A stretch of 28,183 bases of DNA from Patescibacteria group bacterium (GTDB taxonomy: Bacteria > Patescibacteriota > Gracilibacteria > UBA1369 > JBBTWW01): the NCBI GenBank assembly GCA_038062595.1, contig JBBTWW010000134.1, positions 1 through 28,183 of the forward strand, given 5' to 3'. The notes under the pieces were generated by a model. The model made no database searches. It had not been told where the DNA came from and was given only the letters and a program-made list of their open reading frames with translations. The translations under genes and the position numbers were made by a program. This document shows positions 23,892 through 28,050 of this stretch, in pieces (the first letter of the stretch is position 1; each line of letters begins with the position of its first letter).

Positions 23892-24163
23892 TTGCGGTAG
23901 ACCTCTTTATGGTGAGCAACCCGAAGTACAACTAAAACAACAACGGTGTTATTTTTTGGGTCCAGTCTAAATATCACCCTGTAGTCACCCACCCTGTACC
24001 TATATGTATCCAAGGAAAATCCTTTTAGCTTTTTTGCATTTTTCATGGGATTTTCCTGCGCAACGTACTCTTTCATCTTCTTTAAAATTCGTACCGCCTG
24101 CACGCTATCCAATTTACCGATATCCTTCTCCGCCTGGTGAGTATAGAAAATTCTATAATCCAT
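23888..24163 (-). CDS. RelE/ParE-family toxin
   Basis: Y.I.YT..A.KD..KL, KKLKG....YRYRVGDYRVIF, V.HHKEVY. Overlaps the antitoxin by 11 bp. Confidence 0.9.
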   Translation of the reverse strand: MDYRIFYTHQAEKDIGKLDSVQAVRILKKMKEYVAQENPMKNAKKLKGFSLDTYRYRVGDYRVIFRLDPKNNTVVVLVVLRVAHHKEVYRN

Positions 24164-24380
24164 ATTTCTTCATTAGCTCCTTGCTGGTGACGTACATCCC
24201 ATTTTTATACTCTTTCCAGGATGCTTCTACCGTATCGGCAAAATTATCCTGCATCAGTGGTTTTATTACCATGGTGTCGCCGCTGATTTCAGAGATAAAA
24301 TACCTTGTTTGATATTTATCGCGCCAGACTTTTGGGATTGTAACCTGCCCCTGTGAGGTTGCCTGCAGTATCTTGGTCAT
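24153..24380 (-). CDS. AbrB/MazE/SpoVT-family antitoxin
   Basis: TSQGQVTIPK.WR AbrB motif, then ..IKP; C-terminal S..EY..G.Y.T..EL.KK. ATG at 24380 (alternative TTG at 24386). Confidence 0.85.
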   Translation of the reverse strand: MTKILQATSQGQVTIPKVWRDKYQTRYFISEISGDTMVIKPLMQDNFADTVEASWKEYKNGMYVTSKELMKKYGL

Positions 24381-24452
24381 ATTCAAATATAATGAAATAA
24401 TAAACTACATAATTATTATATCATATAAACAGCCGTGTGATCAACCCCGTGA

Positions 24453-24905
24453 TCATCCAATCTTCCTCACCACCGAGCGATCCTGACAGTCATCGAGAAA
24501 TGAATCTACCGGCAAGAGCTCGGAGAGCGGCACCAAGACGAACTTACGCTTCGTCATCTCGCGGTGCGGTATTGATAGCTCCTCGGTGTCAACTGTTTGG
24601 CTGCCGTAAAGCAAAATATCAATGTCGATCGCTCTCGGCCCCCATTTTTCGCCGTCAACACGTCCTATCTCTTTTTCAACTCTTTTGATAAGCGCCAGTA
24701 GCTCCTCCGGCTCGAGCGTAGTCTCCACCTCGACACACTGATTGAGGAACCATGGCTGATCGCGATCCCCCCACGGCTCGCACTCATACATCGCCGACTC
24801 GCGGCGGACCGACACTCCGGCCTTACCAAGTAATACCTGTGCCTCGCGCAAGCTATGCTCACGCTCACCGAGATTTGAACCTATGGAAAGAAAAATTCCT
24901 CTCAT
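24453..24905 (-). CDS. folK: 2-amino-4-hydroxy-6-hydroxymethyldihydropteridine diphosphokinase (HPPK)
   Basis: FLSIGSNLG.R, Y..EPWG..DQP.FLN, IE...GR...KWGPR.IDIDIL.YG, IPH..M..R.FVL.PL. Confidence 0.97.
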   Translation of the reverse strand: MRGIFLSIGSNLGEREHSLREAQVLLGKAGVSVRRESAMYECEPWGDRDQPWFLNQCVEVETTLEPEELLALIKRVEKEIGRVDGEKWGPRAIDIDILLYGSQTVDTEELSIPHREMTKRKFVLVPLSELLPVDSFLDDCQDRSVVRKIG

Positions 24906-25471
24906 GTTTTTTTATTAAAAATTAAATCGTTCAACTTCAACTTATACTTGCGTCGCGCCAGCTCGTCTATCGTTTCAGAACTTTTTTCGTAACCATCCAA
25001 TCCCAGCAGGCCAATCCCCTCTTTTACGGTCTTTGGATCCGCCGCCTCTATCTCCACCAGCGGTGGAATACGCGGATATTCATCAATCTCAAACTTCCAT
25101 TTCTTATATGAGTACAGTGTCCTGCGTTTTTCATAATACACCGTTTGCTTCAGTCCCATTTTTTTAAAAACTGCACTCATTGACTCAAAAACACCGGCGC
25201 CATCAAAAGTCATTTCTGTTTCATCAAAAACTTTACATCCGCCTTTTATACCGCGCTTTTTTTTGTATACAAACTCTGTGTGGATACCATCGCCTTTTAC
25301 AATCTCACGCAGGCGCAGTAGGTCGCCTTTCTTTCTAATCCTGCCATCAGGAAAATCAAAATACCTGACTTTCATGCTCCCGGTGTAAATAAGCTTCGCA
25401 CGAATATCGCGCAGTTTTTTTAAAACAGCGGTCTTGCTGATCTCCAGTATTTTCATTTCAACCTCGCGCAT
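24902..25471 (-). CDS. CYTH (triphosphate tunnel metalloenzyme / class IV adenylate cyclase-like) protein
   Basis: N-terminal EVEMK (ExExK), YFD, LLRLR, EKRR..Y, EIDEYP....VEIE. ATGA overlap with folK. Confidence 0.9.
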   Translation of the reverse strand: MREVEMKILEISKTAVLKKLRDIRAKLIYTGSMKVRYFDFPDGRIRKKGDLLRLREIVKGDGIHTEFVYKKKRGIKGGCKVFDETEMTFDGAGVFESMSAVFKKMGLKQTVYYEKRRTLYSYKKWKFEIDEYPRIPPLVEIEAADPKTVKEGIGLLGLDGYEKSSETIDELARRKYKLKLNDLIFNKKT

Positions 25472-25487
25472 TGCACCTTCAACTATA

Positions 25488-26342
25488 TCACGGCTTTAAC
25501 CCTACCAAAACCCTGGTGTTAAAACTCCACGTTTTCCCGCCGCTTGATGGATTAATTCTTGAAGTAACTGCAATCGTGATGCGTCTTAATACACTAATGG
25601 GGACCTCTGTAAGACGCCGATTACCATCAAATGTGGCTGGAGTACTCTTTAGTGGTCCGTATCCAACCACTCTGTACACGGGAGTGCTACTATTTATGGA
25701 GATACAGTTGATACGTATGCACCATATTTCCCCGGTATTTACAACTATCGCACACTCGGGGTGGATTTTAGAAACTATCTCATTCAATCTGAACTGATTA
25801 AATGCATCAGCATGCCATTCCCGATATGCAGACTCTTCTGCGCCGGCCTCAATTCTAATCGATCCTTCAGGTCTAGCTCCAAAAACCGGCGGGGCACCAG
25901 GTACTCTTTGTCTATCGCTGGACGGAGCTATGGCAGCGCTTCTACTTTCAAACGCATTCGGACTTGAGACGTCGTGGACAACTCTCGCTACACCTCTTGT
26001 GATATCTTCATCAACATGGCGACTGGCCGCACTGCTATCACGTAACCTAAGTGCATTCAAAACTGCAACGCCATGCATTACGCCATCCATAACCATATCT
26101 CCGGACTGCACGGCAAAACGGTCTTTTCCTACACGTATTACGACTATACCTTCTGTCCTGTCGAGGACGAGTTTACCTTGGAGATCTTTGCCATCGCGGG
26201 CAAACTCAATCGATGATAGCTCAACTTCTCTGTCCTCGCCGTCACCAAGATCCTGCTCGCGATTATCTCTGCCAAATGTTGTGAGAAAACTAACGTCGTC
26301 CTGCGTTAGAGGAACCCTTGTTTTTCCGGTTTCGAGACTCAT
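25488..26342 (-). CDS. Hypothetical protein (orphan, two segments joined by a low-complexity linker)
   Basis: Long ORF between queD and CYTH. ATG 26342 (MSLETG) preferred over 26378. Own promoter. Confidence 0.7.
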   Translation of the reverse strand: MSLETGKTRVPLTQDDVSFLTTFGRDNREQDLGDGEDREVELSSIEFARDGKDLQGKLVLDRTEGIVVIRVGKDRFAVQSGDMVMDGVMHGVAVLNALRLRDSSAASRHVDEDITRGVARVVHDVSSPNAFESRSAAIAPSSDRQRVPGAPPVFGARPEGSIRIEAGAEESAYREWHADAFNQFRLNEIVSKIHPECAIVVNTGEIWCIRINCISINSSTPVYRVVGYGPLKSTPATFDGNRRLTEVPISVLRRITIAVTSRINPSSGGKTWSFNTRVLVGLKP

Positions 26343-26394
26343 GGATATAGATTTTATCAGCTTATGACAAAAAGGCAAACCTGAAGTTTAGCAT

Positions 26395-26423
26395 AAAATA
26401 ACATGGGCGCAACTTTTAGTCAA
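26395..26423 (-). promoter_or_regulatory. Internal sigma70 promoter at the queD stop
   Basis: TTGACT (26423-26418), 17 bp, TGT-TATTTT (-10 at 26400-26395). Confidence 0.5.
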
Positions 26424-26868
26424 TAACTACGCAGGCTCCCTCCCCTTCAAAAAGACGCACCTCAAAGAGCTTTATTTTTGAAAAATCCGTTTGATTTGGG
26501 CGAATCTTCTCGGCTGATTTCTGGCGAGCGTAATAGAACTGGATATCGTCGAGATATTTCCTGTCGAGCGACATTGCTTTTAACAAACGCGGCAGTGGTT
26601 TTAATTTCTTCCAAATCCATGTGGCTATATTCTCAGCAGTTGGATTTTTGAAAACATCATTAAGATTTTGATGATCGAGCTCGTCCAGAATATATTTTTT
26701 TACAACGTTTTTTAAAAGCGCGAAGTCGAGCACCATGCCATTCTTGCGAACCGGCCCGCTAACTGTAACCTCCAGACGGTAGGTGTGCCCGTGCATACGC
26801 TCGCACTTGCCGTGATAGTCGGTGAGCTGGTGAGCGGCGTCAAAATGGAAATTTTTCGTGATGCGCAT
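26416..26868 (-). CDS. queD: 6-pyruvoyl-tetrahydropterin synthase family protein (QueD/PTPS, CExxHGH subtype)
   Basis: F.FDAAH.L, GKCERMHGHTY, GMVLDF, LDH..LND...NPTAEN.A.WI. Confidence 0.9.
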   Translation of the reverse strand: MRITKNFHFDAAHQLTDYHGKCERMHGHTYRLEVTVSGPVRKNGMVLDFALLKNVVKKYILDELDHQNLNDVFKNPTAENIATWIWKKLKPLPRLLKAMSLDRKYLDDIQFYYARQKSAEKIRPNQTDFSKIKLFEVRLFEGEGACVVID

Positions 26869-26877
26869 GTGGGATTT

Positions 26878-28050
26878 TTAACGGGTGAAGATATTTTTTA
26901 TAAGTTCTACTATCGGCTTCACATTGTGCACCCTAGCTATACTGGCTCCATTTTGCAGTGCGAGTAGCGAGGTGGCAATAGAAGCTTCTTCACGTGAACC
27001 GATATCGCCTCCCAGGAATGATTTTCGCGATGTGCCGACGAGAATAGGAAAACCGAGCGACCTGAGCTCGCCAAGTCGGCTAAGAATCTCAAAGCTGTAC
27101 ATGGGATCGCTGGAGACAAATGCACCCATGCCAGGATCGATGATAATCTGGTTTTCTTTAATACCCTGCGAGATCGCGAACTCGATGCGTGAGGACAAAA
27201 AATCCTTCACCGCATGTATGACATCCTTGTATTTTTTGGGCACGCGTGTGGTTCGCGGAGTGTTGTCTTTTGCGTACATGAGTACAGCCTGCACCCCGCT
27301 CTCGGCAACCAACTTTGCCATATTTTTATCGCCGCGAAGAGCGGTAACATCGTTTACGATCGATGCACCGTTGACTATGGCAAAGCGTGCAACTTCTGAC
27401 TTGTATGTATCTATCGATAACTCAGTGTGTTTGCCATGGCCACCATGGTTGTCAAAGAGTCCGGATTTTTTTAATTCTTTTAATACTGGTGCGATACGGG
27501 CGAGCTCGTCTGGTTCGCTAACAGGCTTTGACCCCGGACCGGTGGACTCACCGCCTATATCGATGATATGCGCGCCGTCGCGGGCAAGTGCCTTTGCGTG
27601 TGTGACGGCGCGGCTAACGTCAACGAACTTGCCGCCGTCTGAGAATGAATCTGATGTGATATTTAACACACCCATCACGCGCGGCAGACCAAAATCACGC
27701 GTCATTCCGGTAAACACTCTCTGTAGCGCCTCCGCGACGGCGCGCAGTCCAAAAGGCTGACCTTTTAACTTTCCAATCAACTGCTCCAGCTGGCGCTGAT
27801 TTACCATTAGAACTCCGTCCGCTTTTTTTGCACGTAGAAATGAAGCTTCTTTTGATAGCGCGAGCTCACCGCCAAATGACAGTGCATCCTGTTTGAGAAT
27901 ATTCGCCGCACGAATATCAAGACTGCGCAGATGAAAAACATGCGTCTGCATTTTTTTTGACATTATCATAACGCCTGGTGGATCACAGCCAAGCTCTGAC
28001 AGAAGATTCTGTGCGTCTTTTGCGGTACTGATTTTTTTTACCGAGATCAT
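26878..28050 (-). CDS. folP: Dihydropteroate synthase with ~115 aa N-terminal domain (Helicobacter/Campylobacter-type long FolP)
   Basis: DHPS motifs VMGVLNIT.DSFSDGG, DIGGESTGPG, SIDTY, NDV..L, IIIDPG.G, SRKSF, RVHNV. N-domain with ILKQ.A.S.GG, DGVL, QLE.LI.K..QPFGL. Confidence 0.95.
   Translation of the reverse strand: MISVKKISTAKDAQNLLSELGCDPPGVMIMSKKMQTHVFHLRSLDIRAANILKQDALSFGGELALSKEASFLRAKKADGVLMVNQRQLEQLIGKLKGQPFGLRAVAEALQRVFTGMTRDFGLPRVMGVLNITSDSFSDGGKFVDVSRAVTHAKALARDGAHIIDIGGESTGPGSKPVSEPDELARIAPVLKELKKSGLFDNHGGHGKHTELSIDTYKSEVARFAIVNGASIVNDVTALRGDKNMAKLVAESGVQAVLMYAKDNTPRTTRVPKKYKDVIHAVKDFLSSRIEFAISQGIKENQIIIDPGMGAFVSSDPMYSFEILSRLGELRSLGFPILVGTSRKSFLGGDIGSREEASIATSLLALQNGASIARVHNVKPIVELIKNIFTR

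Follow-up and report, generated by a model that had tools for sequence, protein, structure and literature searches.

A CYTH-family phosphohydrolase gene between PTPS and folK in a patescibacterial folate/preQ0 cluster, and its possible role in triphosphate clearance

A candidate triphosphatase in a pterin gene cluster

The DNA analyzed here, referred to as the window, is 28,183 nucleotides of contig JBBTWW010000134.1 (positions 1 to 28,183 of the forward strand) from the assembly GCA_038062595.1 of a Patescibacteria group bacterium (GTDB lineage Bacteria; Patescibacteriota; Gracilibacteria; UBA1369; JBBTWW01). On its minus strand, between a gene of the PTPS family and folK, lies a gene (24902..25471) that encodes a stand-alone triphosphate tunnel metalloenzyme (TTM) of the CYTH family, 189 residues long, called from the open reading frame (ORF) and from its match to Pfam PF01928. 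The analysis establishes the fold, catalytic residues, subclass, operon position and conserved linkage of this enzyme, whereas its substrate, product and physiological role are inferred. The reading that we favor, with a probability of about 0.45, is that CYTH is a tripolyphosphatase (PPPase) that clears the inorganic triphosphate (PPPi) released by the bifunctional PTPS-I/III encoded beside it, because PTPS is the only enzyme of the cluster that releases a triphosphate and the most persistent neighbor of CYTH, and because the reading frames overlap.

CYTH/TTM PPPases are found in all domains of life, but according to the literature it is not known what they do physiologically, where their PPPi comes from or why cells retain specific PPPases (PMC3440374, PMC8233210). 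The PTPS family is among the few whose reactions release free triphosphate, and triphosphate elimination is the first step of QueD catalysis (PMC9894224). A TTM gene wedged between PTPS and folK, with overlapping frames, is a concrete and easily testable pairing of such an enzyme with a source of substrate. If CYTH does dispose of a triphosphorylated by-product of PTPS-I/III, a bacterial CYTH/TTM triphosphatase would for the first time be matched with a defined metabolic supply of substrate, and the FolB-bypass folate pathway would gain its first accessory enzyme; CYTH also provides a candidate accessory step for FolB-independent folate synthesis and for queuosine precursor synthesis in bacteria of the candidate phyla radiation (CPR). 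The searchable literature yielded no paper linking CYTH with queuosine, DHPS, PTPS-III or glycolaldehyde triphosphate. In its biochemistry, the protein looks like a standard PPPase of the SaTTM/NeuTTM-like class. The novelty lies in its surroundings, a PTPS-III folate/preQ0 operon into which a TTM gene has been inserted as an accessory; the papers that could be searched do not describe such an arrangement.

Sequence and predicted structure of the CYTH protein

The CYTH protein begins M-R-E-V-E-M-K. Eight codons upstream of its ATG is an in-frame stop, and the codons in between (S-R-D-I-V-E-G-A) offer no in-frame upstream start. At the other end of the gene, positions 24905-24902 of the minus strand read A-T-G-A (24902..24905), in which the CYTH TGA (24904-24902) overlaps the folK ATG (24905-24903); the first-pass annotation of the window, made from the sequence alone, had described an ExExK CYTH gene overlapping folK in this way, and the ORF, the motif and the stop/start overlap all read as it had them. 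The final codons of CYTH, which encode D-L-I-F-N-K-K-T, contain a TTTAAT word (24914..24919, minus strand) at a distance of 8 nt upstream of the folK start codon, and folK may also be able to start independently of its coupling to CYTH. Comparable CYTH-folK overlaps of 1–4 nt, or gaps of 1–19 nt, were present in the loci fetched from relatives. A profile scan found a single CYTH and a single PTPS in the whole 1.12-Mb genome, whose lineage, to judge from the NCBI organism name of an ortholog, is of the Peregrinibacteria type.

The Pfam CYTH model matches residues 1–144 with 31.6 bits (E = 1.8e-7), which is above its cut-off of 23.2. In an alignment of 25 homologs sharing 29–60% identity with the window protein, 16 positions never vary (E3, E5, K7, D39, L52, R53, R55, K70, E84, E86, G106, K115, R117, D130, E140 and E142), and every acidic and basic TTM tunnel residue is among them. 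They include residues of the ExExK motif (E3, E5, K7; 25451..25465, minus strand) on strand β1, which carries metal and phosphate ligands, the xRxR phosphate-binding motif L51-L-R53-L-R55 (25307..25321, minus strand) and the invariant C-terminal metal-binding ExE motif E140-I-E142 (25046..25054, minus strand). L51, a nearly invariant leucine across the family, aligns with A54 of the Sulfolobus acidocaldarius enzyme SaTTM, and E140 and E142 align with its E135 and E137.

The AlphaFold2 model built from the 25-homolog alignment has a pLDDT of 95.9 and the strand order expected for a β-barrel tunnel. In Foldseek searches with this model, the top matches were the SaTTM structures 7nsd, 7ns9 and 7nsf (TM-score 0.73–0.79), and the ligands in the top-ranked SaTTM structures are triphosphate, ATP or pyrophosphate (PPi). 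AtTTM3, Pyrococcus CYTH proteins, YpCyaB and thiamine triphosphatases (ThTPases) followed. At least 100 PDB entries matched at E ≤ 0.001, led by TTM, CYTH and ThTPase structures. SaTTM was also the best PDB match by sequence.

The subclasses of the superfamily can be told apart by short motifs (Vogt et al. 2021, PMC8233210). In that scheme, class IV adenylate cyclases (AC-IV) have HFxxxxExExK, a small residue (C, V or L) in place of the central arginine of xRxR, and ExA, while ThTPases have W/YxRxR, in which the aromatic residue stacks on the thiazolium ring. In the TTM phosphohydrolases, the AC-IV and ThTPase motifs are both missing and ExE is retained. No more than two residues precede ExExK in the window protein, which also retains R53 with the non-aromatic L51 in L-L-R-L-R and has E-I-E at the C-terminal site; these motifs therefore place it among the TTM-type phosphohydrolases, and not with the class IV cyclases or the ThTPases. 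ThTPase was rejected on L51, which stands in place of W/Y.

One rival identity, that of a class IV adenylate cyclase (CyaB) whose cAMP would act as a signal, has some apparent backing: the ortholog P0015 (L003:6001-6570, GCA_016186205.1; here and below, L, G, C and f numbers are our labels for loci, genomes, contigs and GTDB families) carries that name at NCBI, YpCyaB structures are among the fold matches, and there is a weak match to TIGR00318. This match, at 32.1 bits, is far under the cut-off of 57.95, however, and all three AC-IV signatures fail, since no HF precedes ExExK, the central R53 is kept, and the last motif is ExE, with E142, and not ExA. We regard a cyclase as very improbable, and the public name of these proteins is very probably wrong. 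The view of the first-pass annotation that CYTH is of a triphosphate-hydrolyzing type is upheld here by the motif rules together with the AlphaFold2 and Foldseek results, and the possibility that it had raised against itself, of an enzyme that was only an adenylate cyclase or thiamine triphosphatase, is contradicted by the motifs of both classes.

A proposed route for PTPS-derived triphosphate

The window PTPS (26416..26868, minus strand; 150 aa; Pfam PTPS, E = 1.9e-35; TIGR03367 QueD, 112 bits) has the active-site motif C-E-R-M-H-G-H. This is the CExxHGH pattern of PTPS-I/III hybrids, which serve both folate and queuosine synthesis (PMC5041015). No FolB was found in the window's genome, which is rated 100% complete, and que genes are present, in keeping with a PTPS-I/III hybrid that combines QueD activity with the FolB bypass. 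Profile or tblastn matches were obtained for FolE, QueC and QueE, and tblastn matches for QueF, pabB and pabC. A genome search found neither a family I nor a family II soluble pyrophosphatase (PPase); the sole pyrophosphatase found was a membrane H+-pyrophosphatase (C33:4742-6724). In E. coli extracts, soluble PPase provides the bulk of the PPPase activity (Kohn et al. 2012).

In the mechanism that we propose, the single PTPS would serve both folate and preQ0 synthesis and eliminate the triphosphate of 7,8-dihydroneopterin triphosphate (H2NTP). CYTH would be a divalent-metal-dependent phosphohydrolase that binds triphosphate inside its eight-stranded β-barrel and cleaves the terminal phosphoanhydride bond, with E3/E5 and E140/E142 as the predicted metal ligands and K7, R53, R55, K70, K115 and R117 as the predicted phosphate ligands. 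Working with two metals, it would split the PTPS-derived PPPi into PPi and phosphate (Pi). PPPi chelates Mg and Zn strongly and resembles nucleotides and PPi as a ligand, and its removal might protect the zinc enzymes FolE, PTPS and QueC as well as FolK and FolP, which handle ATP or PPi. The membrane H+-pyrophosphatase might in turn consume the PPi produced. A related formulation, to which we give slightly less credence, is that CYTH is a dedicated clean-up enzyme for whatever triphosphorylated by-product PTPS-I/III generates, whether this is PPPi, from the QueD-type reaction, or an organic compound, for example glycolaldehyde triphosphate, from the aldolase-type reaction of PTPS-III, with PPi again passing to the H+-pyrophosphatase. 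The EC entry for PTPS-III (4.1.2.60) reportedly gives glycolaldehyde triphosphate as co-product; the literature searched yielded no mention of this compound.

A different substrate would be required if CYTH were a pterin-triphosphate phosphohydrolase, acting on H2NTP (as a FolQ-like step or a flux valve) or on the organic PTPS-III by-product, and not on free PPPi. In its favor, TTM enzymes accept organic triphosphates such as thiamine triphosphate, nucleoside triphosphates (NTPs) and RNA 5' ends. Hydrolysis of H2NTP would, however, deprive both PTPS activities of the leaving group on which they depend, and would do so through a gene that is presumably co-transcribed with PTPS; moreover, the position taken by W/Y in ThTPases is not aromatic here, giving no hint of a ring-bearing substrate. 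At least 45 of the approximately 48 genomes of this CYTH clade, the window's included, have PTPS and no FolB. Slight support comes from two genomes with FolB (G008 and G025, the only such cases in a sample of 201), which keep an orthologous CYTH, in which PTPS was not found, and which need H2NTP to be dephosphorylated; two genomes from related families are, however, no statistical sample. Overall, we consider this alternative improbable. The first-pass annotation had named dihydroneopterin triphosphate hydrolase as the second of its two candidate roles: there is no FolB in the genome, so H2NTP hydrolysis would starve PTPS, and the role is unlikely here, with slight support for it in the two FolB lineages.

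CYTH stays with PTPS across the order

To describe the linkage, we used a sample of 201 genomes of the order, scanned for CYTH, PTPS, HPPK and FolB. CYTH was present in 68, PTPS and HPPK in 149 each, and FolB in 2. Within the clade to which the window CYTH belongs, PTPS lies no more than 3 kb upstream on the same strand in 35 of about 48 genomes, from six families: directly upstream of CYTH in 26 and within the 3 kb in 9 more. Where the two are direct neighbors, the spacing is mostly ≤120 nt or the genes overlap (with long-form PTPS, up to ≈260 nt separate the PTPS and CYTH Pfam matches), and overlaps of 4–17 nt between the two reading frames are common among the fetched loci.

Of these genomes, 22 have the full PTPS-CYTH-folK triad. 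In 11 genomes (families f12, f13 and f18, and one of f19), PTPS-CYTH is kept although a distance of 3 kb or more, or a contig boundary, separates it from folK; these include two loci (L047, L048) at which bare PTPS-CYTH pairs stand amid unrelated genes. Where the cluster has come apart, CYTH has remained beside PTPS and not beside folK. The close homologs (43–61% identity), on Peregrinibacteria contigs, are found in the order pabB-pabC-folP-PTPS-CYTH-folK-transketolase_N-queF...queE...queC, and there PTPS and CYTH overlap by 14 nt. The pterin supercluster as a whole runs M16 peptidase-NDK-pabB-pabC-folP-PTPS-(CYTH)-folK, with queF, queE and queC joined to it in relatives, and CYTH is an accessory member of it.

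Gene contexts were read from 40 fetched loci, and five arrangements could be distinguished: f10 and f19 have the pterin supercluster; f18 has PTPS and CYTH as a bare pair with unrelated genes around it; f13 has PTPS-Vut_1-CYTH; f4 has Vut_1-CYTH without PTPS; and f8 has pabB-pabC-folP-lipoprotein-CYTH. Vut_1/YhhQ is a queuosine-precursor transporter family (match E = 6e-48). It is itself a second variable accessory gene of the supercluster, present at L042:3562-4311, L046:3458-4207, L051:3139-3876, L014:3649-4383, L016:2363-3082, L032:3634-4368 and L068:206-967. In f16 it directly follows PTPS and CYTH is absent, and in f4 PTPS is elsewhere in the genome. Vut_1 was not found in the window's own genome.

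The first-pass annotation had asked how far CYTH and the folate genes cluster together across genomes, and had held that a lack of conserved linkage would speak against its proposal. The pterin linkage turned out to be conserved within a clade of about nine GTDB families, as the 35 of about 48 genomes with a nearby PTPS attest, although it is not general. Its description of PTPS as the neighbor of CYTH needs qualifying in a similar way: the two genes share a strand and a cluster in the window, but an orphan reading frame, ORF X, stands between them.

Descent and distribution of CYTH

A maximum-likelihood tree of 46 CYTH proteins contained three groups. Group A comprises the window protein and those of f19, f10 and f18, together with f8, f12 and f9; group B comprises f4 and f13; and the third, unlinked group comprises f2, f5 and f15, which cluster with CYTHs from other CPR and DPANN-like contigs.

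Several results weigh against a dedicated role beside PTPS, the tree being the first of them. It follows the GTDB families, from which it appears that the PTPS-CYTH linkage goes back to one or two ancient insertions that were vertically inherited, with no repeated recruitment. Of the 149 genomes in the order that have PTPS, approximately 100 lack CYTH altogether and yet have the same folP-PTPS(CExxHGH)-folK string, which means that CYTH is missing from about two thirds of the PTPS-folK clusters. The string NDK-pabB-pabC-folP-PTPS-folK occurs in 20 CYTH-less genomes of the order, with CExxHGH in 19 of the 20. Since the clusters are otherwise the same, CYTH is dispensable for the pterin pathway. 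The association is limited to one clade of one order and dispensable in its sister families, and what ties the two genes together appears to be gene order only. Within the window, ORF X separates CYTH from PTPS, and no fusion of CYTH with PTPS or folK was seen among longer proteins, which is weak evidence.

Across the phylum, CYTH is common: it was found in 142 of 401 sampled CPR genomes (35%; the count, but no other result, includes one unpublished genome, G351). Of 80 CYTH genomes checked outside the order, 78 have no PTPS, so the stand-alone CYTH has some PTPS-independent role in the phylum; PTPS was present in only 2 of the 80 and adjacent to CYTH in none. The contexts of three distant CYTH homologs were examined, and none was linked to PTPS. 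Phage 7-deazaguanine clusters were considered as another possible setting, but the window CYTH had no tblastn match in 50,697 phage records. In a single case, which may be due to chance, a distant homolog on an archaeal-looking contig (L006:1409-3449) is located two genes after a corrinoid adenosyltransferase of the CobA/CobO/BtuR type. Corrinoid adenosyltransferases are an enzyme class whose reaction releases triphosphate.

Orthologs without an adjacent PTPS also occur inside the order, next to Vut_1 in f4 and after pabB-pabC-folP in f8. In G008 and G025, which have a group-A CYTH, PTPS was not found and FolB is present (G008:C7:56828-57151, at L074; G025:C106:536-868, at L073); it looks as if the PTPS-III bypass has been replaced there by the classical aldolase route. 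G007 has CYTH, while PTPS, FolB and FolE were not found; in its congener G038, PTPS adjoins FolE on another contig, and the lack of PTPS in G007 is probably an assembly gap.

Two further explanations for the presence of CYTH were considered and rejected. One is that it goes with a special type of PTPS, but the CYTH-less clusters share CExxHGH. The other is that it compensates for a missing soluble PPase, but family I PPase, found in only 25 of the 201 genomes of the order, is also mostly missing from the CYTH-less families. Soluble PPase and CYTH are not complementary, which is a further point against the PPPi reading: in f7, f15 and f17, all CYTH-less, soluble PPase is mostly absent as well.

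These observations can be accommodated by a housekeeping TTM, a general phosphohydrolase of short-chain polyphosphate or triphosphate, as in the many PTPS-less CPR genomes, that was inserted once between PTPS and folK in an ancestor and whose position was then inherited with the gene order of very compact genomes, without any specific connection to pterin chemistry. The 35% of CPR genomes with CYTH, almost all without PTPS, the unrelated contexts of the distant homologs, the vertical tree, the two thirds of identical PTPS-folK clusters that do without CYTH, and the orthologs that persist where PTPS was not found (G008, G025, G007) all fit such an enzyme. So does the fact that the slot in the cluster takes unrelated inserts: ORF X in the window, a 179-aa orphan at L004 and a 632-aa protein at L049. 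Simple inheritance of a chance insertion is, however, at odds with the survival of the PTPS-CYTH pair in at least five rearranged contexts, including the bare pairs left after dispersal of the cluster, and with the overlapping frames with PTPS and folK that are maintained across families at 40–60% identity. Furthermore, at loci where CYTH is not next to PTPS, it mostly adjoins folP or Vut_1, genes that likewise belong to pterin or queuosine metabolism, and no cluster enzyme other than PTPS releases a triphosphate. We regard the housekeeping role as rather unlikely, but as one to be reckoned with. As for the proposal of the first-pass annotation that CYTH removes the PPPi of the neighboring PTPS, the enzyme class, the PTPS chemistry and the linkage within the clade speak for it, while the linkage proved to be vertical in descent and not general.

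Other genes of the cluster

Downstream of CYTH, folK (24453..24905, minus strand) encodes a 150-aa HPPK (Pfam HPPK, E = 2.7e-39; TIGR01498, 144.7 bits). On the other side of PTPS is folP (26878..28050, minus strand), encoding a 390-aa DHPS in which residues 126–375 match Pterin_bind (E = 4.2e-69; TIGR01496, 257.9 bits). The window FolP has an N-terminal extension of approximately 115 aa. Such long forms (380–400 aa) are common to f15 and f16, with copies at L065:5848-7041, L066:1998-3197 and L068:1351-2496, and a short form of 250–315 aa is found in f10, f19 and f17. Another contig of the genome, C87, has the order M16 peptidase-NDK-pabB-x-pabC, with pabC running off the contig edge; this edge would fit as the continuation of the window's right-hand end.

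ORF X (25488..26378, minus strand) lies between PTPS and CYTH and is 284 aa long from an ATG at 26342, or 296 aa from a TTG. It had no Pfam or NCBIfam match and no homolog among 5.8 billion proteins, and it is absent from the 40 related loci. The AlphaFold2 model has a pLDDT of 36 and no confident fold. The codon-usage score of 0.18 is atypical compared to the genome mean of 0.33 ± 0.08, yet it is the best of the six frames. The PTPS-CYTH gap of the window had no Rfam match. We considered that ORF X might be a degenerate remnant of Vut_1, but a comparison showed none. The equivalent slot in relatives holds Vut_1, a 632-aa protein or nothing.

Directly downstream of folK (23888-24386, minus strand) are a MazE-like antitoxin, whose Pfam match is weak and below the cut-off, and a ParE-family toxin, with overlapping frames. 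Toxin-antitoxin modules were also seen beside the bare PTPS-CYTH pairs (L047, L048) and breaking up the que genes (L002–L004). Whether or not CYTH is present, folK is followed in most of the order's folate clusters by a Transketolase_N gene of ≈250–300 aa (for example, L003:7171-8016, L033:2140-3000, L057–L064 and others; ≈280 aa in L001 and L003). The C-terminal half of transketolase was not seen beside this gene in L003. The window's genome has instead a full-length transketolase of 639 aa in a pentose-phosphate cluster on contig C18. It is conceivable that the Transketolase_N gene is tied to two-carbon aldehyde by-products of the pterin branch.

Comparison with known systems

The closest characterized relative is SaTTM (Saci_0718 of S. 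acidocaldarius; PDB 7ns8-7nsf; Vogt et al. 2021), which is likewise a stand-alone CYTH protein of ≈180–200 aa. It shares ExExK, an xRxR motif with a small or aliphatic first residue, and ExE with the window CYTH. It, too, was wrongly annotated as an adenylate cyclase, and PPPi is a better substrate for it than NTPs. However, SaTTM is archaeal and only ≈21% identical to the window protein, and it has no reported pterin-gene context; its authors suggest a role in polyphosphate metabolism, whereas the window CYTH is located within a folate/preQ0 operon. Within the bacteria, NeuTTM from Nitrosomonas europaea and YgiF from E. coli belong to the same family and are both specific tripolyphosphatases (Kohn et al. 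2012). The physiological source of their substrate is unknown, and "metabolite proofreading" against toxic PPPi was proposed as their function (Kohn et al. 2012). YgiF differs in having a CHAD domain and in being co-transcribed with glnE, and neither enzyme is linked to one that produces PPPi, while the window CYTH shares an operon with such an enzyme.

The CyaB cyclases of Aeromonas and Yersinia (TIGR00318) share superfamily, fold and size with the window CYTH, which differs from them in the missing HF, the retained gate-keeper arginine and ExE in place of ExA. FolQ/NudB would likewise have a triphosphate of this pathway segment as its substrate, but its fold is unrelated to that of CYTH, NudB being a Nudix hydrolase; the window's genome lacks FolB, and PTPS-III bypasses the FolQ step there. 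A FolB-less folate pathway through PTPS-III or PTPS-I/III has been described (Dittrich 2008; Pribat 2009; Zallot 2016). The window cluster resembles it in the string folP-PTPS(CExxHGH)-folK and in the use of one PTPS for the folate and queuosine branches. The accounts of that pathway and its gene neighborhoods in PMC5041015 and PMC5445326 name no triphosphatase partner, whereas here, in a subset of families, a TTM gene is placed between PTPS and folK.

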